A stretch of 64,000 nt of DNA from Actinomycetes bacterium (GCA_021793295.1 JAJYTA010000004.1:442-64441); one strand, 5' to 3'; positions 54,674-64,000 are shown, counted from the stretch's first letter. Numbers and translations: made by a program. The notes: generated from the letters alone by a model not told the origin.

Positions 54674-56239
54674 TCACCATGTGGGGAGTGGGAGGAATTC
54701 GGGCGGACCGGCCGTCGGCCACCACACGTCGCCGTAAGACTCCCACGACAACACCAACAGGCACACCCCGAGCACGAGGACGGTCACCGGCGCCCACACC
54801 GCCCGTGGCATGCGATTCAGCGGCTCGACGGCGATCTTGAGCCCACGCCGGCTGCGAACCCCACCTGGACCCCACCACACCAGCGCCGTGGTGACGACGG
54901 CACCGGCGAGGTACGGCCCGCGTAGTCCGGACCCGTCCCACAAGGCGACCAGCGACCCGGTGGCCAGCCCGCAGGCCAGCGCGAAGATCGCCTGTCCCAG
55001 CGCCGGCAGCACCGCGCCCAGCACGTCCCACGGCGCGGCCAGCACCGCCAGCCAGCGATCGTTGCGGCGGGTACCCCGCACCTTGCGCCGCTCGTACAGC
55101 CGTCGTTCGATCCGCCACCCGGTCCGCCCGGCCAGCAAGGTCACGACGGTAGCCGCAGCGCCGACGACCGGCGCCCAGCCGAGCAGGAGCACGAGGACGA
55201 CGCCACCGAGCGCGAGCACGACGGAGGCGGCATGCCCGCCCAGGGCGAGACCGCCGCCGGTGGCTGCCGGCCGAGGAGGCGGCGGCTGTGGTGGAGGTTG
55301 CGCGACCGGGCGGGGCCGCTCGGGCGGCGGGACCCTGAGGGCGGCGGTCTCGTCGGTGGCCTCCAGGTCCGCGGCACGCTCGGCCGGTACCGCCGCCGGG
55401 GGCGCGGGCGGCATGGCGAGCGTCTCGGCCGCATCCGGGCGGGCCAGCGCGTCGATGGCCGTGAGCACGGCTTCGGTGCCCGGCCGGGTGGCTGGATCGA
55501 CGCGCAGCGCGCTCGACAGGACGCCGGCCAGCCCGGGCTCCACGCCGGTGAGGTCGTGCTCACCACGGCGGACGCGGTCGAAGACCGCGATATCGGGGCC
55601 GTGGCCGTACGGCGGGCGCCCGGTAGCGGCGAAGACCATGGTCGCCGCCCAGCCGTGCAGGTCGGTCGCGGCGGTCGGGTCGCGGCCGAGGACGGTCTCC
55701 GGCGCCAGGTAACCGGGGGTTCCGGAGATGAAGCCGGTCGCGGTGAGCCGGGTGTCGTCAGCGGCGTGCGCGATGCCGAAGTCGATGAGCACGGGGCCGT
55801 CGTCTGACATGAGCACGTTGGCGGGCTTCACGTCGCGGTGGACGACCCCGGCGGCGTGCACGCTGCGCAGGGCCTCCAGCAGTCCGCGCGCCAAGTCCAG
55901 TAGCGCCGGGCCACGCAGCGGCCCGGACTCGCCGACCAGCCGAGTCAGCGGTACCCCGTCGACGTAGCGCGTGACGACGTACGGCGGGTCGGCGGTGATG
56001 TCGGCGTCGATGACCTCGGCGATGCGCCGGCCGCGGACGCGCCGCAGCGTCGCCACCTCGCGTTCGAACCGGCGGCGTCCGTCCGTGCCGCCCACCAGCC
56101 ACGGGCGCAACGTCTTGACCGAGACCCGCGACCCGTCGGGGGCAGTTGCGAGATACACCACGCCCATGCCGCCTTCGCCGATCTGCTCGGCGATGCGATA
56201 TGGCCCGATCTTGGCCACTTCGGACGGCAATGTGTTCAC
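54674..56239 (-). CDS. Ser/Thr protein kinase with C-terminal TM segments
   Basis: GEGGMGVVY, HRDVKPAN, DFG and GTPGYLAPE; Pro-rich linker. Confidence 0.93.
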   Translation of the reverse strand: MNTLPSEVAKIGPYRIAEQIGEGGMGVVYLATAPDGSRVSVKTLRPWLVGGTDGRRRFEREVATLRRVRGRRIAEVIDADITADPPYVVTRYVDGVPLTRLVGESGPLRGPALLDLARGLLEALRSVHAAGVVHRDVKPANVLMSDDGPVLIDFGIAHAADDTRLTATGFISGTPGYLAPETVLGRDPTAATDLHGWAATMVFAATGRPPYGHGPDIAVFDRVRRGEHDLTGVEPGLAGVLSSALRVDPATRPGTEAVLTAIDALARPDAAETLAMPPAPPAAVPAERAADLEATDETAALRVPPPERPRPVAQPPPQPPPPRPAATGGGLALGGHAASVVLALGGVVLVLLLGWAPVVGAAATVVTLLAGRTGWRIERRLYERRKVRGTRRNDRWLAVLAAPWDVLGAVLPALGQAIFALACGLATGSLVALWDGSGLRGPYLAGAVVTTALVWWGPGGVRSRRGLKIAVEPLNRMPRAVWAPVTVLVLGVCLLVLSWESYGDVWWPTAGPPEFLPLPTW

Positions 56240-56462
56240 CCCACGACGGTAGCTCAGGGACCCGCCTCACCATCGAATTCGCGCCACGGAGCGAATCTGC
56301 TGGGTGGACGGCGCGCGGTCTGCTATTGCTTGTACTTGACGGTGATCATGGGGGCTCGCGTGCGCACGTCTCGCGAGTTGTTGGGGAAGGACGACCCGGA
56401 TGGGGAGCCAGGGGGCGACGGCTCGGCGCGACCGCGCGCAGACAGCTCGGTCGGTGCCCCGG

Positions 56463-57221
56463 ATGCGCCGTCCGGCCAGTCCATTGGTACCCGAGGCGCT
56501 GGGCCGCGCGGTCAATCGCAGCGATCGTCTGGACGCGCTGACCCGGGAGTTGCGGGCGGCCGGGGGCGACGGGCGTACGTCGGCGTGGCTCGCCGAGCGG
56601 CTGGGCGTCTCGGCTCGCACGGTCAAGCGCGACGTCACCGCGTTGCAACAGGCCGGTGTCCCGATCAAGGCCGCCAGCGGTCCGCAGGGCGGCTACTCCC
56701 TCGCCGACGTTCCCGGCGCGGGTTCGGGTGGGCTCACCACCGACGAGGCGATCGCCGTCGTGGTCGCGCTGCAGGCCACACCTGACCAGCCGTTCGCCGC
56801 GGCGGGACGGGGGGCGGTGTCCAAGATCTTGCGATCGCTGAGCCCGGGCGAGCGGGCCGAGGTCGCGCGGGTGGCCGAACGCATCTGGATCCGGCCGGGT
56901 GAACCCACCCCGACGGCTGAGGACACCGTTCGCGACGTGCTCACGCGGGCGGCACGCGAATGTCGCGTCGTGGTGCTCGACTACGATCCTGGCGACGGTT
57001 CAGCGGCTCTGACGCTGCAGGTCGAGTCTCTTGGCTTCGCTCACTCCCGAGGGCAGTGGTTCGCGCTGATGTGGTGCCGCGAGCTCGAAGGCGGGCGGTG
57101 GCTGCGGCTCGACCAGATCGCGGCGGTGCAACTCACCCACGAGACCTACGAGCCGCGGGACGTACGCGACGTCTTCGGACCCGGCGCCGGGTCGGCCGAC
57201 GCCCCGCACGATCACCGCTGA
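56463..57221 (+). CDS. HTH-WYL (YafY-like) regulator
   Basis: LAERLGVSARTVKRDV, GPQGGY, WYL-like WFALMWCR..RWLRLDQI; start uncertain. Confidence 0.85.
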   Translation: MRRPASPLVPEALGRAVNRSDRLDALTRELRAAGGDGRTSAWLAERLGVSARTVKRDVTALQQAGVPIKAASGPQGGYSLADVPGAGSGGLTTDEAIAVVVALQATPDQPFAAAGRGAVSKILRSLSPGERAEVARVAERIWIRPGEPTPTAEDTVRDVLTRAARECRVVVLDYDPGDGSAALTLQVESLGFAHSRGQWFALMWCRELEGGRWLRLDQIAAVQLTHETYEPRDVRDVFGPGAGSADAPHDHR

Positions 57222-57230
57222 CGGCAGCGC

Positions 57231-58265
57231 TCAACGCCGCAGCGGCGCTCGAGCGAACTCGGCGATGCCCTCGGCGAAACCGATCTCGGCCTCGAACCCG
57301 ATGGCCTCGGCCGCCCGCTGCGGTGAGGCCACCACGTGGCGAACGTCGCCCAGCCGGTACTCGCCGGTGACCTGCGCGGCCGGAGCGTCGGCACCGAAGG
57401 CGGCGCACAGCGCCTGAGCCATGTCCAGGACGCTGTGCGGCTGCCCGCTGGCCACGTTCAGCGCGCCGGTCCAGGAGGACTCCAGGGCCAGGACGTTGGC
57501 GCGGGCGACGTCGCGCACGTGAACGAAATCGCGCATCTGGCCGCCGTCCTCGAACACTTTCGGCGCGGACCCGGCCTCCAGGGCGCTGCGGAACAGGGAA
57601 GCGACGCCGGCGTAGGGCGTGTCCCGGGGCATCCGCGGGCCGTAGACGTTGTGGTAGCGCAGCGCGCACACCGCGGCGCCGGTCTCGCGGGCGTACACAC
57701 TGGCCAGGTGCTCGGTGTGCACCTTGGTCGCGGCGTAGACGTTGCGCGGGTCGGCCGGCGCGTCCTCGTCGATCCGAGCCCAGCTCAGCGCCGCGCCGCA
57801 CTGGGGGCACGGCGGATCGAACCGGCCGGCGTCGAGGTCGGCCGCCGACCGGGGGCCGGGCCGCGTGTCTGCGTGAGTTTCACACGTGTAGCGGCCCTCG
57901 CCGTACACGACCATCGACGACGCCACCACCAGCCGGCCGGCGAAGCGGCGCCGCCACAGCGCACGCAACAACGTCGCGGTGCCCAGGTCGTTGTCGGCGA
58001 CATAGGCGCGCACGTCGTCGAGGTCCACCCCCAAGCCGACGCGCGCAGCCTGGTGGCACACGGCATCGACGCCGTCGACGGCTCGCGCCATGGCGTCCTC
58101 GTCGTTGATGTCCACGGTGCGCAGATCGACCCCGGACGGCAACACAGGTGATTCGTCGTGCGCCACGAGTGAGTCGACCACCACCACGTCGGCGCCACGG
58201 TCGACGAGCAGGTCGACGACATGCCCGCCGATGAATCCCGCTCCTCCGGTCACGAGTACTCGCAT
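57231..58265 (-). CDS. NAD-dependent epimerase/dehydratase with Cys-rich insert
   Basis: TGGAGFIG, SS, YAATK, RYHNVYG, RDFVHV. Confidence 0.92.
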   Translation of the reverse strand: MRVLVTGGAGFIGGHVVDLLVDRGADVVVVDSLVAHDESPVLPSGVDLRTVDINDEDAMARAVDGVDAVCHQAARVGLGVDLDDVRAYVADNDLGTATLLRALWRRRFAGRLVVASSMVVYGEGRYTCETHADTRPGPRSAADLDAGRFDPPCPQCGAALSWARIDEDAPADPRNVYAATKVHTEHLASVYARETGAAVCALRYHNVYGPRMPRDTPYAGVASLFRSALEAGSAPKVFEDGGQMRDFVHVRDVARANVLALESSWTGALNVASGQPHSVLDMAQALCAAFGADAPAAQVTGEYRLGDVRHVVASPQRAAEAIGFEAEIGFAEGIAEFARAPLRR

Positions 58266-58287
58266 CGTCTCTCCTCCGTCGAACGTC

Positions 58288-59565
58288 TCACCACGGCGAG
58301 CGCAGCGCCGCCTGCAGCGCGACGGCCACCACGACCTGACTGGACAGCCACCAGCGCGCCGTCCGGGCGGGCTCGCCCACCGCGGCACCGGCCACCAGGA
58401 CCAGGGGCATGAACGGCTGCCAGATCCGTTCGGTCTCGGCCGAGGACAGCCCGGACACGTCGGCCAGCAGCACGACCGCCAGGCCCGACCCGACCACCAG
58501 CCAGGTCCGCAGGTCACGCAGGACCGCCAGACCGGCCGCCGTCGCGGGCCCGACGGCCACGGCGAACACCGCGAGATTCGCCACCACGAAGTAGTCGTGT
58601 GGACGAATCGCGCCGACTCCCGCGTAGTACTGCTGTTGAGTCACTTCGAGCCCGTCCAGCCACCAGTAGCCCACCAGCAGCGGCGCCAGAACCACCGCGG
58701 CTCCCGCGAGCGCGCAGGCCGCCAGGACCGCCCATCGCCGCCGCCACCCGGCGATCACCGCGATCGGCACGGCGAGCAAGGCCAAGCCGAACGACAGCAG
58801 CAAGGCCACCCCGAACACGGCACCGCCACCTACCGCGTACAGCACGCCGGCGCGGCCCGGGCGACCCGTTCCCAACACGATCAACGCCACCCCGGTCAAC
58901 GCGACACCGGCGAACACCACGTCGGCGTTCGTGTGCCAGACCGCGGCCGGGGCGAGCACCAGGAACGGCGCCGCAGCACGAGCCACCCGGTCGCCGGCGA
59001 CCTCACGCGTGATCACCAACGCCGAGACCGCCGCGGCGGCCACGCCGGACAACGCCAGCACGGTGTGAAAGCCGAGTCCGGTCAGCCCGGCCTGCTCGGC
59101 CGCCCACAACGCGGTGATCAGTCCCGGCGGGTGTGCCTGGAGGTGGACGGGCACGGAGTCCTGGTTCTGCACGTACCCGTCCAGGAAGGCGGCCAGGCCG
59201 CCGGCATCGTCCACCAGATGCGTGTGCTGCGCGTAGGCGTACTGGATGTCGCCGAACCCGGTGTCGCCGGGATCGACCACGGCCAGCGCAAGACTCCACA
59301 CCGCCGTGGCCACAGCCACGACCGCGAGCAGACGACGCCAGGGCAGCGTCGCCGCCAGCGGTGGCAGGACGGCGATCGCGGTAGCGCCGATCGCCACGGG
59401 CACCACCAGCCGCCACGTCAGTTCCGCCTCCCACCGGCCGTAGAACGGCACGGCGTAGACCTTGATGTCTTCTGCGGCCTCGCGGACGACGTCGAGACCC
59501 CAGTAGCGCGCGATCAGGATCAGCGCTGCCCAGAGGACCAGCGCGACGGCGACTCGGCGCCTCAC
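58288..59565 (-). CDS. Polytopic membrane protein, GT-C-like
   Basis: About 10 TM segments, HLQAHPPG loop, ETERIWQPF; GTG overlaps kinase stop. Confidence 0.65.
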   Translation of the reverse strand: MRRRVAVALVLWAALILIARYWGLDVVREAAEDIKVYAVPFYGRWEAELTWRLVVPVAIGATAIAVLPPLAATLPWRRLLAVVAVATAVWSLALAVVDPGDTGFGDIQYAYAQHTHLVDDAGGLAAFLDGYVQNQDSVPVHLQAHPPGLITALWAAEQAGLTGLGFHTVLALSGVAAAAVSALVITREVAGDRVARAAAPFLVLAPAAVWHTNADVVFAGVALTGVALIVLGTGRPGRAGVLYAVGGGAVFGVALLLSFGLALLAVPIAVIAGWRRRWAVLAACALAGAAVVLAPLLVGYWWLDGLEVTQQQYYAGVGAIRPHDYFVVANLAVFAVAVGPATAAGLAVLRDLRTWLVVGSGLAVVLLADVSGLSSAETERIWQPFMPLVLVAGAAVGEPARTARWWLSSQVVVAVALQAALRSPW

Positions 59566-60794
59566 GACGGCAGGCGGATGGTGAAGCAGCAACCCCGGTC
59601 CCGATTCGCCACTTCGACCGAACCGGAGTGTGCCTCCACCAGGCCTCGGACGATCGCCAGCCCGAGCCCGCCGCCGCCGGCGTCCCGGCCGCGCGCCGCG
59701 TCGCCACGGAAGGCCACGTCGAACACTCGCGTCAGTTCGGTCTCGGGGATGCCGCCGCACTCATCGACGACCTGCAGCACGACACCGTCGGGGTCGGTCC
59801 GCGACTCGACGACGACCCGGCCGCCGGGCGGGGTGTGCCGCACCGCGTTGTCGAGCAGATTGTCCAAGGCTCGGGTGAACTCGCGGGCCGAGACTTCGAC
59901 GTCGGGCAGCGCACCCACCTGTTCGACCAGCTCGACGTCCTTGACCGAGGCTCGCGTGGCGGCACCGGCCAAGGCATCGGCCACGACGTCGGCCAGACCG
60001 ACCATCTCGTCGCTGAGGCGCAGCGATCCACTGTTGATACGAGACAGCTCGAACAGGTCGTCGACCAGCGCCGTCAGCCGCTCGGCGTCGTCGCGGATCT
60101 GCCGGTGGTATCGCGCGACGGTGTCTTCGTCGTCGGCGATCTTGTCGTCGAGCGCCTCGGCCATCGCGCGGATCGTGGCCAGCGGGCTACGCAGGTCGTG
60201 CGACACCCAGGCGATGAGCTCTCGCCGCGACGCCTCGAGCGTGCGCTCCCGGCGGCGGGACTCGTCCAGCTCGGCCGAGACGTCGGCGAGCTCACGGGCC
60301 AGTGCGGCCAACTCACCCGGGCCGGTGACGTCGTCGGTCGCGGCCCCCAGCTGTACGTCGGCGTCGGCGTCCTCGGGGCGGTCGTCCACCATGGTCCGGG
60401 CGAGGTCGACCACCTGACGAGCGCCGGTGCCGATGTCGTCGCCGAGTTGCAGAGCCGCGCCGACGGCGACCGCCGCGGCCACCGACACCACCACGAACAG
60501 CGCGGCCAGGTCGTGAGTCGAGATGAACATCGCCCAGGCCGAGGCGACGATGCCGCTGACCGTCACGAGCAGCGACGACAACGCGACGACCAACGCCTGC
60601 GCCCGGACCGGCCGGCCGCGGATGGCCCGCAGCACGGTGGCTCCGACCGCGGCGGCCACGCCGGAGGCCAGCACGGTGACCGACACCAGAACGATGGTGT
60701 CGCCGGTGTCCAGCCCGACCGATGCGGCGATGCCGGCGGCCACGATGAGTCCGGCGGCCAGCACCGCCACGCTCCAGCCTTGTCGCGCGCTCAT
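59562..60794 (-). CDS. Sensor histidine kinase (no extracytoplasmic domain)
   Basis: SHDLRSPL H-box, NLLDNA, DECGG, GLGL; 3-4 N-terminal TMs. Confidence 0.95.
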   Translation of the reverse strand: MSARQGWSVAVLAAGLIVAAGIAASVGLDTGDTIVLVSVTVLASGVAAAVGATVLRAIRGRPVRAQALVVALSSLLVTVSGIVASAWAMFISTHDLAALFVVVSVAAAVAVGAALQLGDDIGTGARQVVDLARTMVDDRPEDADADVQLGAATDDVTGPGELAALARELADVSAELDESRRRERTLEASRRELIAWVSHDLRSPLATIRAMAEALDDKIADDEDTVARYHRQIRDDAERLTALVDDLFELSRINSGSLRLSDEMVGLADVVADALAGAATRASVKDVELVEQVGALPDVEVSAREFTRALDNLLDNAVRHTPPGGRVVVESRTDPDGVVLQVVDECGGIPETELTRVFDVAFRGDAARGRDAGGGGLGLAIVRGLVEAHSGSVEVANRDRGCCFTIRLPS

Positions 60795-61501
60795 GCGTGG
60801 TACCGGTACCCGACACCGCGGACGGTCACCAGGTGCCGCGGGTTGGAGGGATCGGGCTCGATCTTCTCGCGAAGCCGGCGGATGTGCACGGTGACCGTCG
60901 ACGTGTCGCCGAAACTCCACCCCCACACGGCTTCGAGCAGTTCTTCGCGACGGTAGGCCCGTCCCGGATGGGTCATGAAGTGCACGAGCAGGTCGAACTC
61001 CTTGGTCGTGAGGGCCACGGTCTCGCCGCCGCGGCGCACCTGGTGGGCGACGACGTCCACCTCGAGGCCGGCACCGAGCAGCGTGCGCGCCGACGACGCC
61101 TCGACCGCGCCGGCCGCGGCTCGCCGCAGCACCGCCTTGACCCGCGCCGACAGCTCCCGGGGCGAGAACGGCTTGGTGACGTAGTCGTCCGCGCCGATCT
61201 CGAGGCCGGCGATCCGGTCGTTCTCCTCACCCAGCGCGGTGAGCATGACCACGGGGATGGGTGCGACCCGGCGCAGCCGGCGGCACACCTCGAGCCCGTC
61301 GAGACCCGGCAGCATGAGATCGAGCACGACGATGTCCGGTAACGACTGCAGGGCGCGGGCCAGGCCCGAGGTGCCGTCCGCGGCGAAGTCGACGTCGAAT
61401 CCGTCGCGACGCAGGTAACGGCCGACCACGTCCGACAGCGCTGGATCGTCGTCGACGACCAGCACCCGCGGGCCCGCAGCGGTATCCATGTCACCCACCA
61501 T
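60791..61501 (-). CDS. OmpR-family response regulator
   Basis: VVDDD, LDLMLPG, DDYVTKPF, TVTVHIRRLREKIE; start may be 61489. Confidence 0.96.
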   Translation of the reverse strand: MVGDMDTAAGPRVLVVDDDPALSDVVGRYLRRDGFDVDFAADGTSGLARALQSLPDIVVLDLMLPGLDGLEVCRRLRRVAPIPVVMLTALGEENDRIAGLEIGADDYVTKPFSPRELSARVKAVLRRAAAGAVEASSARTLLGAGLEVDVVAHQVRRGGETVALTTKEFDLLVHFMTHPGRAYRREELLEAVWGWSFGDTSTVTVHIRRLREKIEPDPSNPRHLVTVRGVGYRYHA

Positions 61502-61604
61502 GCCACCGTCGAGCCGTCTCGTCGGCGGCGTCCAAGGTCCTGGTCAGAAGTCTTTAGCGGCTTTTAAGGTTTACGGCCCGGGTATCTGCCTACGGTCAGT
61601 GGGC

Positions 61605-62234
61605 ATGAAGGACTCGCACGTACTGGTGCTGGCGAAGGCCCCCGAGGCCGGGCGATCGAAGACCCGGCTGTGCCCCCCGTACGCTCCGGACCAGGCCGCC
61701 GAAGTAGCCGAGGCAGCTCTGGCCGACACTCTCGAAGCCGTGGCCGCATCCGGCGCGCGGCGGCGGATACTCGCGCTCGACGGCCCGCCGGGCCCGTGGC
61801 TGCCGCCAGGTTTCGACGTCGTCGCGCAGGTGAGCGGATCGTTCGCGACGCGGCTGCAGGCCGCCTGGGATCACGCCGGCGGTCCAGGTGTGCAGATCGG
61901 CATGGACACACCGCAGGTGACCGCTTCCATGCTGGACCACGCCCTGGGCTTGTTGGACGACCACGAGGCGCTGCTCGGGCTGGCCGAGGACGGCGGCTGG
62001 TGGGCGCTGGGACTGCGCCAGGCCCAGCCGGGTTTGTTCGACGGCGTGCCGATGAGCACGGCCCGCACCGGTTTCGACCAGTACATCCGGCTGCGCGCAC
62101 TCGGACTGGCGGTGCGGATGCTGCCGACGATGCGTGACCTCGACACCGCCAGTGACGCGGCCACGATCGCCGCGAGCGCGCCGGGCACGCGGACGTCGCG
62201 AATCGTGCGGGCGATGCTCCCGCGTGCGGCATGA
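61605..62234 (+). CDS. DUF2064 / TIGR04282-like transferase
   Basis: AKAP..GRSKTRL, GMDTPQ, AEDGGWW, DLDT. Confidence 0.88.
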   Translation: MKDSHVLVLAKAPEAGRSKTRLCPPYAPDQAAEVAEAALADTLEAVAASGARRRILALDGPPGPWLPPGFDVVAQVSGSFATRLQAAWDHAGGPGVQIGMDTPQVTASMLDHALGLLDDHEALLGLAEDGGWWALGLRQAQPGLFDGVPMSTARTGFDQYIRLRALGLAVRMLPTMRDLDTASDAATIAASAPGTRTSRIVRAMLPRAA

Positions 62235-62857
62235 CGGCCGCCAGTACGTCCGGTCACGGGGAATCGATGACCACGGTGCTGCGCCGGCGTGACGGCACGG
62301 CCCAGCAGCTGGCGGTCGACGACTGGACGGCGCCGGCGACGCCGGCCGAGCGCGGACTGCTCCGGTCACTGCACGGGCCCGTGCTCGACCTGGGTTGCGG
62401 TCCTGGTCGGCTCGTCGTGGCCCTGGGCGAACTCGGTATCCCGGCGATGGGCATCGACGCCTCGTTGCAGGCCGTACGGCGGGCGCGCACCCGCGGCGCC
62501 CAGGTCCTGCACTACTCGGTCTTCGACCGGTTGCCTCGTGAGGGCCGATGGCGCAGCGTCTTGCTCTTCGACGGCAACATCGGTATCGGCGGCTGTCCGA
62601 CGACCCTGTTCAGTCGAGTGCGTGACCTGCTGGCCCGCGACGGCCGGGCGCTGGTGGAGACCGATCCCCCGGGCACGACGACCATCGAAGGCGAGGCACG
62701 CCTGGAACGTGCTGGCGAGACCACCAGCTGGTTTCCCTGGGCGTGGGTGGCTGCCGACGACGCGCCGCGGCTGGCCGGCGCCGCCGGACTTCGGTTGACC
62801 GGATGGCACGTCGCCGACGGCCGGTGGTTCGCGAGGTTGCGGAGGCGGACACGATGA
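62231..62857 (+). CDS. Class I SAM-dependent methyltransferase
   Basis: VLDLGCGPGR, DGNIGIGG, WFPW; start 62231 or 62267. Confidence 0.88.
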   Translation: MTAASTSGHGESMTTVLRRRDGTAQQLAVDDWTAPATPAERGLLRSLHGPVLDLGCGPGRLVVALGELGIPAMGIDASLQAVRRARTRGAQVLHYSVFDRLPREGRWRSVLLFDGNIGIGGCPTTLFSRVRDLLARDGRALVETDPPGTTTIEGEARLERAGETTSWFPWAWVAADDAPRLAGAAGLRLTGWHVADGRWFARLRRRTR

Positions 62858-63528
62858 TCGACGTGATCTTGCCGGTTCTCGACGAGGCCGAAGCGATTCC
62901 GTGGGTGGTGTCGAGGATGCCGCCCGGGTACCGCGCCCTCGTCGTCGACAACGGTTCGTCGGACGGGTCGGCACAGGTCGCAGCTGCTGCCGGAGCGCAG
63001 GTCGTGCATGAATCACGGCGCGGATTCGGCGCGGCGTGTTACACCGGACTGGTCGCCGCGAGTTCGACGGTGGTGTGCTTCATGGACTGCGACGCATCGC
63101 TCGACCCGCGAGATCTCCCGTCGGTCGCCGATCCGGTCACCGAGGGCGAGGCTGATCTCGTCCTGGGTGCCCGGCGCGGCGAGCGCGGCGCGCTGCCGCT
63201 TCATGCTCTGGTGGCCAATCGCTATCTGGCTCGTCGGGTCGCGCGCCTGACCGGTGCGCGGCTGAGTGACATCGGACCGATGCGCGCCGCACGGCGGGCC
63301 GATCTCCTCGACCTCGAGCTGACCGACCGCCGGTCCGGGTGGCCGCTGGAGATGGTGCTGCGCGCCGCCAGGGCGGGCTGGCGGATCGCCGAACGGCCGG
63401 TCCCGTACTACGCGCGAACGGGGCGGAGCAAGGTCACCGGGACCGTCCGGGGCACCGCCCAGGCGGTCTTCGACATGCGCCGACGTCTGATGGAGGCGCA
63501 ACGCAGCGTGCGAGAGGAGCACCCGTGA
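62854..63528 (+). CDS. GT2 glycosyltransferase (Dol/polyprenol-P-sugar synthase-like)
   Basis: ILPVLDE, VDNGSSDGS, MDCDAS DxD, SGWPLEM. Confidence 0.92.
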   Translation: MIDVILPVLDEAEAIPWVVSRMPPGYRALVVDNGSSDGSAQVAAAAGAQVVHESRRGFGAACYTGLVAASSTVVCFMDCDASLDPRDLPSVADPVTEGEADLVLGARRGERGALPLHALVANRYLARRVARLTGARLSDIGPMRAARRADLLDLELTDRRSGWPLEMVLRAARAGWRIAERPVPYYARTGRSKVTGTVRGTAQAVFDMRRRLMEAQRSVREEHP

Positions 63529-64000
63529 ACGAGGCGCACAAGGCCGAGATCGGTGTCTTCGGCGGCTCCGGTTTCTACACGTTCCTGTCCGACGTGGAAA
63601 CCGTCACCGTCGACACCGCATGGGGTTCGCCGTCCGGGCCGGTCACGATCGGCTCGATCGACGACGTACGGGTGGCGTTCCTACCCCGGCACGGCCCTCA
63701 CCACGAGTGGCCCCCGCACCGGGTGAACTACCGCGCCAACGTCGATGCGATGCGGCAATTGGGGGTGCACACGCTCCTCGCTCCGTTCGCCGCCGGTTCG
63801 CTGCGCCCGGAGATCCGCCCCGGTGACTTCGTCGTCGTCGATCAGCTCGTCGACCGGACGTCGGGCCGCCCCGACACCTTCTACGACCACTTCGACGAGG
63901 GGCCACAGCACATCTCGCTGGCTGACCCGTACGACGCCGGCGTGCGCCAGACCCTGCTCGCCGCGGCGCGACGCACGGGCGTGCCGGTTCACGACGGCGG
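63525..64000 (+). CDS. mtnP: S-methyl-5'-thioadenosine phosphorylase (3' end outside window)
   Basis: Hand-translated: IGVFGGSGFY, TAWGSPS, FLPRHG, VNYRAN, DQLVDRT; absent from ORF track. Confidence 0.9.
   Translation, partial: MNEAHKAEIGVFGGSGFYTFLSDVETVTVDTAWGSPSGPVTIGSIDDVRVAFLPRHGPHHEWPPHRVNYRANVDAMRQLGVHTLLAPFAAGSLRPEIRPGDFVVVDQLVDRTSGRPDTFYDHFDEGPQHISLADPYDAGVRQTLLAAARRTGVPVHDG

Follow-up and report, generated by a model that had tools for sequence, protein, structure and literature searches.

The closest described counterpart of the gene cluster analysed here is the methylthioxylose (MTX) capping cluster of Mycobacterium tuberculosis, described by Angala and co-workers in 2017 (ACS Chem Biol 12:682, cited in PMC8780516 and PMC11127046), in which 5-methylthio-xylofuranose is reportedly formed from methylthioadenosine (MTA) and delivered to the cell exterior on a polyprenyl-phosphate carrier. 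The H37Rv locus comprises Rv0535 (the MTA phosphorylase, MTAP), Rv0536 (GalE3), Rv0539 (MtxS), Rv0541c (MtxT) and, as a further member, Rv0540. Another counterpart is the modification of lipid A with aminoarabinose by ArnC and ArnT in Enterobacteria, which is controlled by PmrAB and PhoPQ.

The assignments of MtxS to Rv0539 and of MtxT to Rv0541c have been published (PMC8780516, PMC12088412), and the MTX route has been described as starting from MTA as the initial donor and proceeding through a decaprenyl-phosphate-linked intermediate to a GT-C transferase (PMC11127046). Three-component systems for extracytoplasmic glycosylation, such as GtrA/GtrB/Gtr* and those for pentofuranoses (PMC11127046), resemble the present cluster in that a cytoplasmic GT2-type synthase is combined with a GT-C user of the polyprenyl-phosphate sugar on the outside; however, the MTX donor derives from MTA instead of PRPP or UDP-Glc (PMC11127046).

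The cluster studied here lies at the end of the window, the whole 64,000-nt stretch of DNA that was analysed. As predicted from its genes, it is a variant of the already known MTX system, and it probably represents the Jiangellaceae version of the actinobacterial MTX pathway, with a putative product chemistry. This Jiangellaceae actinomycete has all five MTX-capping genes, yet is predicted to be unable to make the mycobacterial acceptor glycan. A conserved two-component system and methyltransferase, an operator-like box, a predicted non-lipoarabinomannan acceptor and the apparent loss of an oxidoreductase are absent from the published mycobacterial model.

Gene content, operon layout and distribution

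The region 57231–64000 consisted of two divergent, translationally coupled operons with eight genes, which carried the domains named in an earlier note on this DNA (Pfam, NCBIfam). The minus-strand operon was ordered response regulator (RR), histidine kinase (HK), GT-C and SDR epimerase, and the plus-strand operon DUF2064, SAM methyltransferase, GT2 and MTAP. Within both arms, neighbouring genes overlapped by 4 nt (ATGA/GTGA) or, in front of the ATG start of the epimerase, were separated by 22 nt containing the Shine-Dalgarno sequence GGAGGAG; the two operons could therefore be considered real. Thus, the two coupled divergent arms of the earlier note were borne out for all eight genes and by the junction overlaps. 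Its expectation that the right arm runs past the window held for the last 99 codons of MTAP, which ended 295 nt beyond the window edge, but not for further cluster genes. Between MTAP and the end of the contig lay approximately 740 nt, in which no ORF had a Pfam match.

Table 1. Features of the cluster, in window coordinates
Feature	Position	Strand	Basis
SDR NDP-sugar epimerase, GalE3 (Rv0536) type, 344 aa	57231..58265	-	Pfam Epimerase, E 5e-45
GT-C-fold membrane glycosyltransferase, MtxT (Rv0541c) orthologue, 425 aa, polytopic	58288..59565	-	Fold model and H37Rv match
Histidine kinase, 410 aa	59562..60794	-	HisKA and HATPase_c (Pfam)
OmpR/PhoB-family response regulator	60791..61501	-	Response_reg and Trans_reg_C (Pfam)
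Candidate response-regulator operator TTTAG-N6-TTAAG	61553..61568	+	Motif conservation
-10-like hexamer TACGGT	61591..61596	+	Spacing of 8 nt to the downstream DUF2064 ATG
DUF2064/TIGR04282-like protein, Rv0540 orthologue, putative MTR-1-P nucleotidyltransferase	61605..62234	+	PF09837, E 4e-24
Class I SAM-dependent methyltransferase, start 62231 or 62267	62231..62857	+	Methyltransf_23/25 (Pfam)
GT2 polyprenyl-phosphate glycosyltransferase, MtxS (Rv0539) orthologue, 224 aa	62854..63528	+	Glycos_transf_2 (Pfam)
S-methyl-5'-thioadenosine phosphorylase, Rv0535 orthologue	63525..64000, ending at 64295	+	NF005876

The cluster was compared with 79 related loci, which came from Jiangellales, Glycomycetales, Acidimicrobiia, Mycobacteriales, Streptomyces and others. 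In 66 of them, epimerase, GT-C, DUF2064 and GT2, the four genes of the core, occurred together, so the arrangement is not a chance one, and 48 of these 66 core-complete loci also contained the two-component system. Judged by gene content across the loci, both the two-component system and the methyltransferase form a conserved part of the cluster in Actinomycetota.

Correspondence with the H37Rv MTX locus

Five enzymes of the window were the reciprocal best matches of a single H37Rv locus (626.4–634.3 kb; 33–55% identity); in the reverse search, the top match of each M. tuberculosis protein in the host genome was the window gene. The earlier description of the product as unknown was therefore too cautious, because the MTX cluster had gone unrecognised. 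Both clusters hold the five enzyme types in one locus, including a soluble GT2 and a GT-C-fold transferase. They differ in gene order, the window genes forming two divergent operons, and in the SAM methyltransferase and two-component system, which are absent from the H37Rv locus; in H37Rv, galE3 and mtxS are instead separated by a gene for a DUF7937 membrane protein and a 548-aa ORF.

The epimerase was 55% identical to the protein at the Rv0536 position over 352 aa (E 4e-117; reciprocal best match), and a Cys/His insertion, C-x2-H...C-P-x-C, was common to both. The GT-C protein gave no Pfam or NCBIfam match, contained at least nine hydrophobic segments and yielded an AF2 model (pLDDT 87.4) whose top Foldseek matches were all GT-C enzymes (STT3, ArnT, AftA, PglB, Pmt and EmbB). 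A whole-genome search of H37Rv placed it at 633058–634272(c) with 33–36% identity over approximately 390 aa (E 1e-43), and it was the sole match of MtxT in the host genome. Homologues 52–64% identical to it have been named 'methylthioxylose transferase' by JGI. Since only about a third of its residues are identical to MtxT, its donor or acceptor specificity could differ.

The GT2 matched MtxS (631734–632363) with 47% identity over 211 aa as a reciprocal best match (E 5e-51), while the next-best GT2 paralogue of the host genome reached 31%. It had no transmembrane segment, and ArnC was its closest solved relative. The DUF2064 protein, the sole match in the host genome, was 43% identical over 203 aa to the protein at the Rv0540 position; the closest solved structure was 3cgx, a 'putative nucleotide-diphospho-sugar transferase'. 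Full-length MTAP was 52% identical to Rv0535 (626478–627185), matched solved MTAPs at E 4e-60 and scored 323.6 bits against the NF005876 cut-off of 306. It was the only MTAP of the host genome, and MtnA could not be found in this 99.99%-complete genome, so that 5-methylthioribose-1-phosphate (MTR-1-P) would lack the canonical route for its salvage.

Predicted pathway, acceptor and alternative readings

Following the M. tuberculosis model, MTAP would phosphorolyse MTA to MTR-1-P, which the DUF2064 protein may convert to a nucleotide sugar and the GalE3-type SDR may bring into the xylo configuration. The soluble MtxS-type GT2 would then load the sugar onto polyprenyl phosphate and, after flipping, the MtxT-type GT-C enzyme would transfer it to an extracytoplasmic glycan. 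The SAM methyltransferase most likely acts on the sugar or its nucleotide-activated form, and the final sugar may, owing to this additional enzyme, differ from plain MTX. The roles of the DUF2064 protein and the epimerase are assignments of that model, and we know of no biochemical demonstration of either in any organism. The published MTX pathway logic and the five reciprocal matches speak for the earlier suggestion that MTAP supplies a 5-substituted ribose-1-phosphate and does more than recycle MTA. The matches to MtxS and MtxT likewise support the proposal, made in the same note, that the GT2 protein makes a polyprenyl-phosphate sugar which the GT-C protein passes to an extracytoplasmic acceptor. 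Unlike the three-component systems, the cluster has no flippase gene: neither its eight ORFs nor the flanking ORFs scanned contained a GtrA, MATE or SMR domain, although a flippase may be encoded elsewhere.

Searches that were positive for the C. glutamicum control detected no arabinosyltransferase of the Emb type (PF04602) or AftA type (PF12250) in the 99.99%-complete genome. The lack of Emb and AftA argues that the acceptor is not lipoarabinomannan (LAM). In contrast to M. tuberculosis, the host would be without Emb/AftA arabinan synthesis and, judged by gene content, its acceptor cannot be mannose-capped LAM (ManLAM), with its mannoside cap.

The same enzyme relay could instead act on another 5-substituted pentose, such as 5-deoxy-xylofuranose from 5'-deoxyadenosine, or an O-methyl or S-methyl-sulfonium derivative, which we consider unlikely. 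MTAP-family enzymes commonly accept 5'-deoxyadenosine as well, and the methyltransferase, which has no counterpart in the M. tuberculosis locus, was conserved here and in 44 of the 79 related loci. Its motifs LDxGCGPGR, GxD and LLxDGNxGIGG were invariant in 23 cluster-linked orthologues. The AF2 model (pLDDT 91.6) was closest in fold to XhnM1, CcbJ, TylM1 and NmbA, and sugar or nucleotide-sugar methyltransferases (TylM1, KedS8 and CcbJ) were among its neighbours. However, the window MTAP scored above the equivalog cut-off for MTA phosphorylase, MTX is the product of the sole characterised member of this gene set, and the absence of the methyltransferase from the Glycomyces and M. tuberculosis loci marks it as accessory and not as a core step.

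A very unlikely variant is that the 'methyltransferase' cleaves SAM to supply MTA, as an AzeJ-type or aminocarboxypropyl-transferase-type class I fold. AzeJ (SAM to MTA and azetidine carboxylate) was among its fold matches (E 2e-9, TM 0.56), but true methyltransferases matched far better (XhnM1, E 1e-16, TM 0.77). Moreover, the gene did not track MTAP across the loci but a molybdenum oxidoreductase, both being present in 37 loci and neither in 20. 

In the closest relatives the oxidoreductase gene lies between DUF2064 and the methyltransferase (L003:3253–4410). The fuller actinobacterial cassette, seen in Haloactinopolyspora alba, Jiangella, Acidimicrobiia MAGs, Streptomyces, Rhodococcus and Gordonia, shares with the window the core genes, the methyltransferase (40–70% identity), the two-component system and the promoter box, and adds this membrane haem b-molybdopterin oxidoreductase (an MsrQ/MsrP-like fusion). 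No orthologue could be found in the window genome, and the class to which the window belongs, with methyltransferase and without oxidoreductase, was rare (3 of the 66 core-complete loci). This pattern indicates that the haem-molybdenum oxidoreductase, the usual companion of the methyltransferase, is lost in the window lineage.

It is highly improbable that the cluster is an ordinary glycosylation system for a polyprenyl-phosphate-linked hexose, mannose or glucose, beside a housekeeping MTAP gene. The GT2 shows weak similarity to the dolichyl-phosphate hexose transferases AglJ and ArnC, and MTAP, as the only genomic copy, must also serve housekeeping. Against this, the GT2 and GT-C proteins matched MtxS and MtxT specifically, MTAP is translationally coupled to the GT2 gene by a GTGA overlap, and MTAP lies inside the cluster in Jiangellaceae, Glycomyces, Rhodococcus, Williamsia, Gordonia and Mycobacterium.

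The arsenic or selenium link raised earlier, an arsenosugar- or selenosugar-type pathway in which TIGR04282-like and TIGR04283-like transferases and a radical SAM enzyme act on a 5'-deoxyadenosyl-As/Se intermediate, is hardly credible: the nearest NCBIfam models of the DUF2064 protein and, weakly, of the GT2 are labelled 'arsenosugar biosynthesis glycosyltransferase', but both scored below cut-off (117.9 against 134 bits for TIGR04282; 39.9 against 182 bits for TIGR04283), Rv0540 of the MTX locus scored similarly on TIGR04282 (113.8 bits), an ArsS-type radical SAM protein (TIGR04167) was absent, the best match in the genome, on another contig, reaching 25.6 bits where the cut-off is 300, and no radical SAM gene was seen in the window cluster or in the related loci inspected.

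Two-component system and divergent promoter

The kinase had transmembrane segments at residues 9–27, 34–52, 67–85 and 96–114 with loops of at most 14 aa, and is predicted to be of the intramembrane-sensing type. Cluster-linked HK orthologues 43–76% identical to it occurred in 54 of the 79 loci (best own-genome paralogue, 37%), and RR orthologues of 54–87% identity in 55 (best own-genome paralogue, 50%); both proteins were nearer to cluster-linked ones of distant taxa than to any paralogue in their own genome. Synteny and motif conservation suggest that both divergent operons are probably controlled by the kinase and the OmpR-type regulator, and the conserved promoter box strengthens the earlier link of the cluster to this system. 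As with ArnC and ArnT, a two-component system would govern an envelope modification made via a polyprenyl-phosphate sugar, and the resemblance extends to the GT2 and GT-C structural matches; the systems differ in sugar, precursor pathway and acceptor, and the window kinase lacks a periplasmic sensor domain.

The likely site of the regulator is the box TTTAG-N6-TTAAG, with two half-sites 11 nt apart, which overlaps the -35 region of the biosynthetic promoter. It was unique in the window, found in 0 of 100 shuffles and matched only twice in the whole 4.67-Mb genome. Thirty related loci contained the consensus TTTCGC-N5-GTAAG without mismatch, nearly always within the divergent promoter of the cluster, and the window box departed from it at 2 of 11 specified positions. 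The TACGGT hexamer is inferred to be the -10 element of a leaderless-type promoter; a TAnnnT hexamer preceding the first biosynthetic start codon by 5–8 nt was conserved in loci of Jiangellales, Glycomyces, Mycobacterium sp. SMC-4, Gordonia, Lolliginicoccus, Nocardia and Geodermatophilaceae. The box was located 22 nt upstream of the hexamer in the window and 33 nt upstream in Glycomyces, which corresponds to one more helical turn with the phase kept.

Gene organization and the counterpart locus in M. tuberculosis

The cluster at window positions 57231-64000 is a real and well-explained feature, namely a known pathway in a regulated variant. Protein comparison placed all five window enzymes with M. 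tuberculosis (Mtb) counterparts on one 8-kb locus of strain H37Rv, the locus for 5-methylthio-xylofuranose (MTX), as listed in the table. When the membrane glycosyltransferase (GT-C) was compared with the whole H37Rv genome, the same locus was recovered (E 1e-43, 36%). The reverse search identified the window cluster as the best match in this genome of each of the five Mtb proteins, and Rv0540 and Rv0541c each had a single match here, at the cluster. A C-x2-H...C-P-x-C insertion is common to the window and Mtb epimerases, and the window DUF2064 protein and Rv0540 scored 117.9 and 113.8 bits against TIGR04282, respectively, both below the 134-bit cut-off. The product class of the cluster can be predicted from these matches. 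PMC8780516 and PMC12088412 describe MtxS (Rv0539) as the maker of the decaprenyl-phosphate-MTX donor, and PMC11127046 gives 5'-methylthioadenosine (MTA) as the origin of the pathway and places the action of the GT-C enzyme outside the cell. Literature searches gave no result for Rv0540 or related locus tags, and only irrelevant papers for MTX combined with Streptomyces, Rhodococcus or two-component systems (TCS).

Since the G+C content of the region is 71-73%, raw ORF lists were noisy. Eight genes were picked out by domain scans (Pfam, NCBIfam), and reading of the start codons revealed two divergent operons, with an ATGA or GTGA overlap at every plus-strand junction. The domain scans, start codons, and stop/start overlaps thus bore out the two coupled divergent arms, and the gene types within them, that the earlier note had described. 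That note also had the right arm continuing beyond the window; MTAP (MTA phosphorylase) does run 295 nt past the end, but no further recognizable ORF precedes the end of the contig. As the ORFs downstream of MTAP had no Pfam match and the contig ends approximately 740 nt past the gene, MTAP is the last gene of the right arm, as far as the assembly shows.

Features of the cluster and its surroundings, with protein matches in H37Rv
Feature	Position (window, unless a locus is named)	Strand	Start, junction or context	Match in H37Rv
Ser/Thr protein kinase	54674-56239	minus	beyond epimerase end of cluster	
WYL/HTH-domain regulator	56400-57221	plus	directly past epimerase stop	
SDR epimerase	57231-58265	minus	start 22 nt beyond GT-C gene, GGAGGAG Shine-Dalgarno ahead	627248-628285 (Rv0536, GalE3), 55% over 352 aa, E 4e-106
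425-aa membrane protein (GT-C)	58288-59565	minus	GTG overlapping HK stop as GTGA	633058-634263 complement (Rv0541c, MtxT), 33% over 406 aa, E 3e-38
Sensor kinase (HK)	59562-60794	minus	ATG overlapping RR stop as ATGA	
Response regulator (RR)	60791-61501	minus	domain scan and start-codon reading	
Divergent region	61502-61604			
Candidate box	61553-61568		within divergent region	
TACGGT hexamer	61591-61596		8 nt upstream of ATG	
DUF2064	61605-62234	plus	first gene of biosynthetic arm	632393-633001 (Rv0540), 43% over 203 aa, E 7e-26
SAM methyltransferase	62231-62857	plus	alternative start 62267, preceded by GGGGAA	
GT2	62854-63528	plus		631734-632363 (Rv0539, MtxS), 47% over 211 aa, E 5e-51
MTAP	from 63525, end past window	plus		626478-627185 (Rv0535), 52% over 248 aa, E 3e-71
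GTCAC-N6-GTCAC repeat	L082:7190-7215, L083:9320-9345, L084:10840-10865, L069:9770-9795		Mycobacteriales loci	

A 104-nt stretch of the window contig, a little past the window end (C248:64655-64756; the last 26 MTAP codons plus approximately 25 nt downstream), was repeated at 94% identity on contig C125 (5260-5363, locus L088), directly after a DUF222/HNH-endonuclease gene (L088:3397-5166). Either the trace of a mobile HNH element or a repeat that breaks the assembly could account for it. The Haloactinopolyspora alba contig likewise ends shortly past MTAP.

The H37Rv locus also differs from the window cluster. In H37Rv, galE3 and mtxS are separated by two ORFs, one of 477 aa (DUF7937 membrane protein, complement) and one of 548 aa (L087:2999-6387), whereas in Mycobacterium sp. 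SMC-4, which is of the fast-growing type, the cluster TCS lies between these genes (L082:5454-7149), exactly at the Rv0537c/Rv0538 position. The H37Rv ORFs of 477, 548, and 449 aa are presumably Rv0537c, Rv0538, and Rv0541c, respectively, which they fit. The window cluster carries a methyltransferase while the H37Rv locus does not. The main uncertainty in the MTX assignment is that the product could be another 5-substituted pentose or one that is methylated further. Chance adjacency of a housekeeping MTAP is contradicted by the translational coupling of the gene and by the fact that six genera carry MTAP within the cluster. The speculative link to an arsenic or selenium pathway in the earlier note did not hold, as all three defining features (TIGR04282, TIGR04283, and ArsS) fail.

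Individual enzymes and the acceptor

The 425-aa membrane protein had no Pfam or NCBIfam match. Its nearest named relatives in a large protein collection were those of H. alba (73%) and Jiangella species (approximately 62-66%), and three homologues at 52-64% identity carry the JGI label 'methylthioxylose transferase'. The AlphaFold model was confident (pLDDT 87.4, pTM 0.90), and its best PDB matches by Foldseek were all GT-C enzymes (STT3, ArnT, AftA, AglB, PglB, Pmt, and EmbB), with a probability of approximately 1, yet with E only approximately 1e-3 and TM of 0.3-0.45. The nearest solved relative of the GT2 protein, which is without a TM segment, was the polyprenyl-phosphate glycosyltransferase ArnC, and that of DUF2064 was 3cgx, deposited as a putative nucleotide-diphospho-sugar transferase.

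The full-length MTAP scored over the equivalog cut-off (323.6 vs 306 bits) and is the sole MTAP in the genome. As MtnA, the isomerase of 5-methylthioribose-1-phosphate (MTR-1-P), could not be detected in this genome, which is rated 99.99% complete, the canonical salvage route for MTR-1-P appears to be missing, in line with a diversion into the sugar pathway. In the model of Angala et al. (2017), MTA is reportedly converted to MTR-1-P and then to nucleotide-MTR, which is 3-epimerised, transferred to decaprenyl phosphate and finally to lipoarabinomannan (LAM). Nucleotidyl transfer and 3-epimerisation, in the middle of this route, are unproven, and the genome could serve for testing them.

Arabinosyltransferases of the Emb or AftA type were absent from the genome, while the Corynebacterium glutamicum positive control was detected. 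Judged by this gene content, mannose-capped LAM cannot be the acceptor here; possible acceptors are a mannan, a lipomannan-like glycolipid, another wall polymer or a glycoprotein. In tuberculosis, LAM carries MTX as a diagnostic epitope, and a complete MTX gene set in a harmless, non-mycolate actinomycete unable to build arabinan could help to find the ancestral acceptor. The finding bears on a question raised in PMC11127046.

Distribution and accessory genes

The neighbourhood survey proposed in the earlier note covered 79 named loci from a scan of species-representative genomes, using tblastn with the eight window proteins and genes within 10 kb. All four core genes (epimerase, GT-C, DUF2064, and GT2) occurred together in 66 of the 79 loci, and 48 loci had the HK and RR as well; loci short of the full core were mostly on short contigs. 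Individually, the epimerase and DUF2064 were each present in 72/79 loci, GT2 in 70/79, the methyltransferase in 44/79, and MTAP in 32/79. The taxa included Jiangellaceae, Glycomyces, Phytoactinopolyspora, many Acidimicrobiia MAGs, Rhodococcus, Nocardia, Streptomyces, Symbioplanes, and Geodermatophilaceae. Among Mycobacteriales, the methyltransferase was also found in Gordonia, Williamsia, Lolliginicoccus, and Mycobacterium sp. SMC-4, together with the TCS save in one Williamsia locus. GT-C homologues were present in 304/401 sampled genomes of the genus of SMC-4 and in 159/401 of the GTDB family of the Rhodococcoides fascians locus (L047). The window RR shared 57-71% identity with cluster-linked RRs of Streptomyces or Acidimicrobiia, and the HK 43-54% with the corresponding kinases, whereas paralogues in its own genome were less close (RR ≤50%, HK ≤37%). 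This argues for orthology of the cluster TCS across taxa and against repeated recruitment.

The SAM methyltransferase (METHYLTRANSFERASE) has an LDxGCGPGR SAM-binding motif and a GxD acidic loop that were invariant in 23 orthologues, as was an unusual LLxDGNxGIGG motif, which points to an active enzyme. Its model was confident (pLDDT 91.6), and the nearest folds were natural-product and sugar methyltransferases, namely XhnM1 (TM 0.77), CcbJ, CypM, NmbA, and TylM1, with the SAM-cleaving AzeJ lower in the list. Sequence and fold searches returned generic class I small-molecule methyltransferases only. With low confidence, a nucleotide-activated or lipid-linked thio-sugar is considered its most likely substrate.

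Between DUF2064 and the methyltransferase, H. alba and Jiangella encode a protein of 385 aa that combines a cytochrome-b561-like membrane domain with an Oxidored_molyb domain at the C terminus. The NCBIfam models nearest to it were those for sulfite dehydrogenase and MsrP, with scores that all fell far short of the cut-offs. Homologues of this Mo-oxidoreductase, covering more than half its length, were present in 50/79 loci. Among the 66 core loci, 37 had both it and the methyltransferase, 20 had neither, 3 had the methyltransferase only, and 6 the Mo-oxidoreductase only; these counts come from mutually related loci and the events are not independent. The window genome has no orthologue, only Mo-domain paralogues at ≤35% identity on other contigs, and DUF2064 directly adjoins the methyltransferase in the window. 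This is read as a loss of the Mo-oxidoreductase in the window lineage, which, with the methyltransferase kept, offers a natural comparison for the roles of both accessory genes. Speculatively, the Mo enzyme may reduce a sulfoxide form of the sugar.

Downstream of MTAP and in the same orientation, Jiangella encodes a redoxin/thioredoxin-like lipoprotein along with a DsbD_TM (CcdA-like) membrane protein (L004:2181-3673, L005:2328-3751), a pair that delivers reducing power to the cell exterior; it had no match in the window genome at E < 1e-6.

Sensor kinase and candidate operator

Residues 9-114 of the HK contain four hydrophobic helices joined by loops of ≤14 residues, and the kinase has no extracytoplasmic domain. 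Intramembrane-sensing kinases have this architecture, which would make a membrane or lipid-intermediate signal likelier than a soluble ligand. The 103-nt divergent region holds a candidate box, TTTAGCGGCTTTTAAG. A related consensus, TTTCGC-N5-GTAAG, was exact in 30 loci (33 sites), nearly always in the divergent promoter of the cluster, against a chance expectation of approximately 0.2 matches in that DNA as estimated from base composition. The degenerate pattern occurred once in the window and in 0/100 shuffles. Two sites were present in the whole genome; a wider regulon was not adopted, as the second strict site (C125, between SDR and LysR genes) was judged a chance match, approximately one being expected.

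The two 5-nt halves of the box (TTTAG and TTAAG; consensus KTWMG) lie 11 nt apart, a spacing that would suit a tandem OmpR/PhoB-type dimer. The TACGGT hexamer follows 22 nt downstream of the box end, and in Glycomyces this distance is longer by one helical turn (33 nt). A TAnnnT hexamer lying 5-8 nt ahead of the start codon of the first biosynthetic gene recurs from Acidimicrobiia to Mycobacterium, which suggests a leaderless transcript with a candidate activator site overlapping the -35 position. A scan for consensus sigma-70 promoters and terminators gave no matches and is uninformative at 71% G+C. In Mycobacteriales loci with the TCS, a different sequence, the direct repeat GTCAC-N6-GTCAC, stands ahead of the biosynthetic operon where other loci have TTTCGC-N5-GTAAG, and the operator seems to have changed along with the regulator. 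The dedicated sensor kinase and the candidate operator offer a possible way to the inducing signal.

In a wider reading, which we put forward as rather unlikely, regulated decoration of the envelope with an MTX-type thioether sugar would be ancient in Actinomycetota, and the sugar would not be a LAM-specific cap. Carried on a non-LAM glycan, it would act as a redox group, either sacrificial or reversible, that goes from thioether to sulfoxide; it would be switched on by the intramembrane-sensing TCS via the conserved operator and repaired in most lineages by an outward-facing haem-molybdenum reductase. If true, the window lineage would amount to a natural mutant in which the repair enzyme was lost while the sugar and the methyltransferase were retained.

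In Glycomyces, a second operator-like box (TTTAGCGGAWCGTAAG) was observed approximately 1 kb downstream of MTAP (L010:4445, L012:4562, L022:4508, L023:4551, L025:4551, L028:4610). It precedes a molybdopterin-oxidoreductase-domain gene, the product of which resembles the fused enzyme in its Mo domain only (37-39%); the Glycomyces Mo enzyme may belong to the same regulon though it lies outside the operon.
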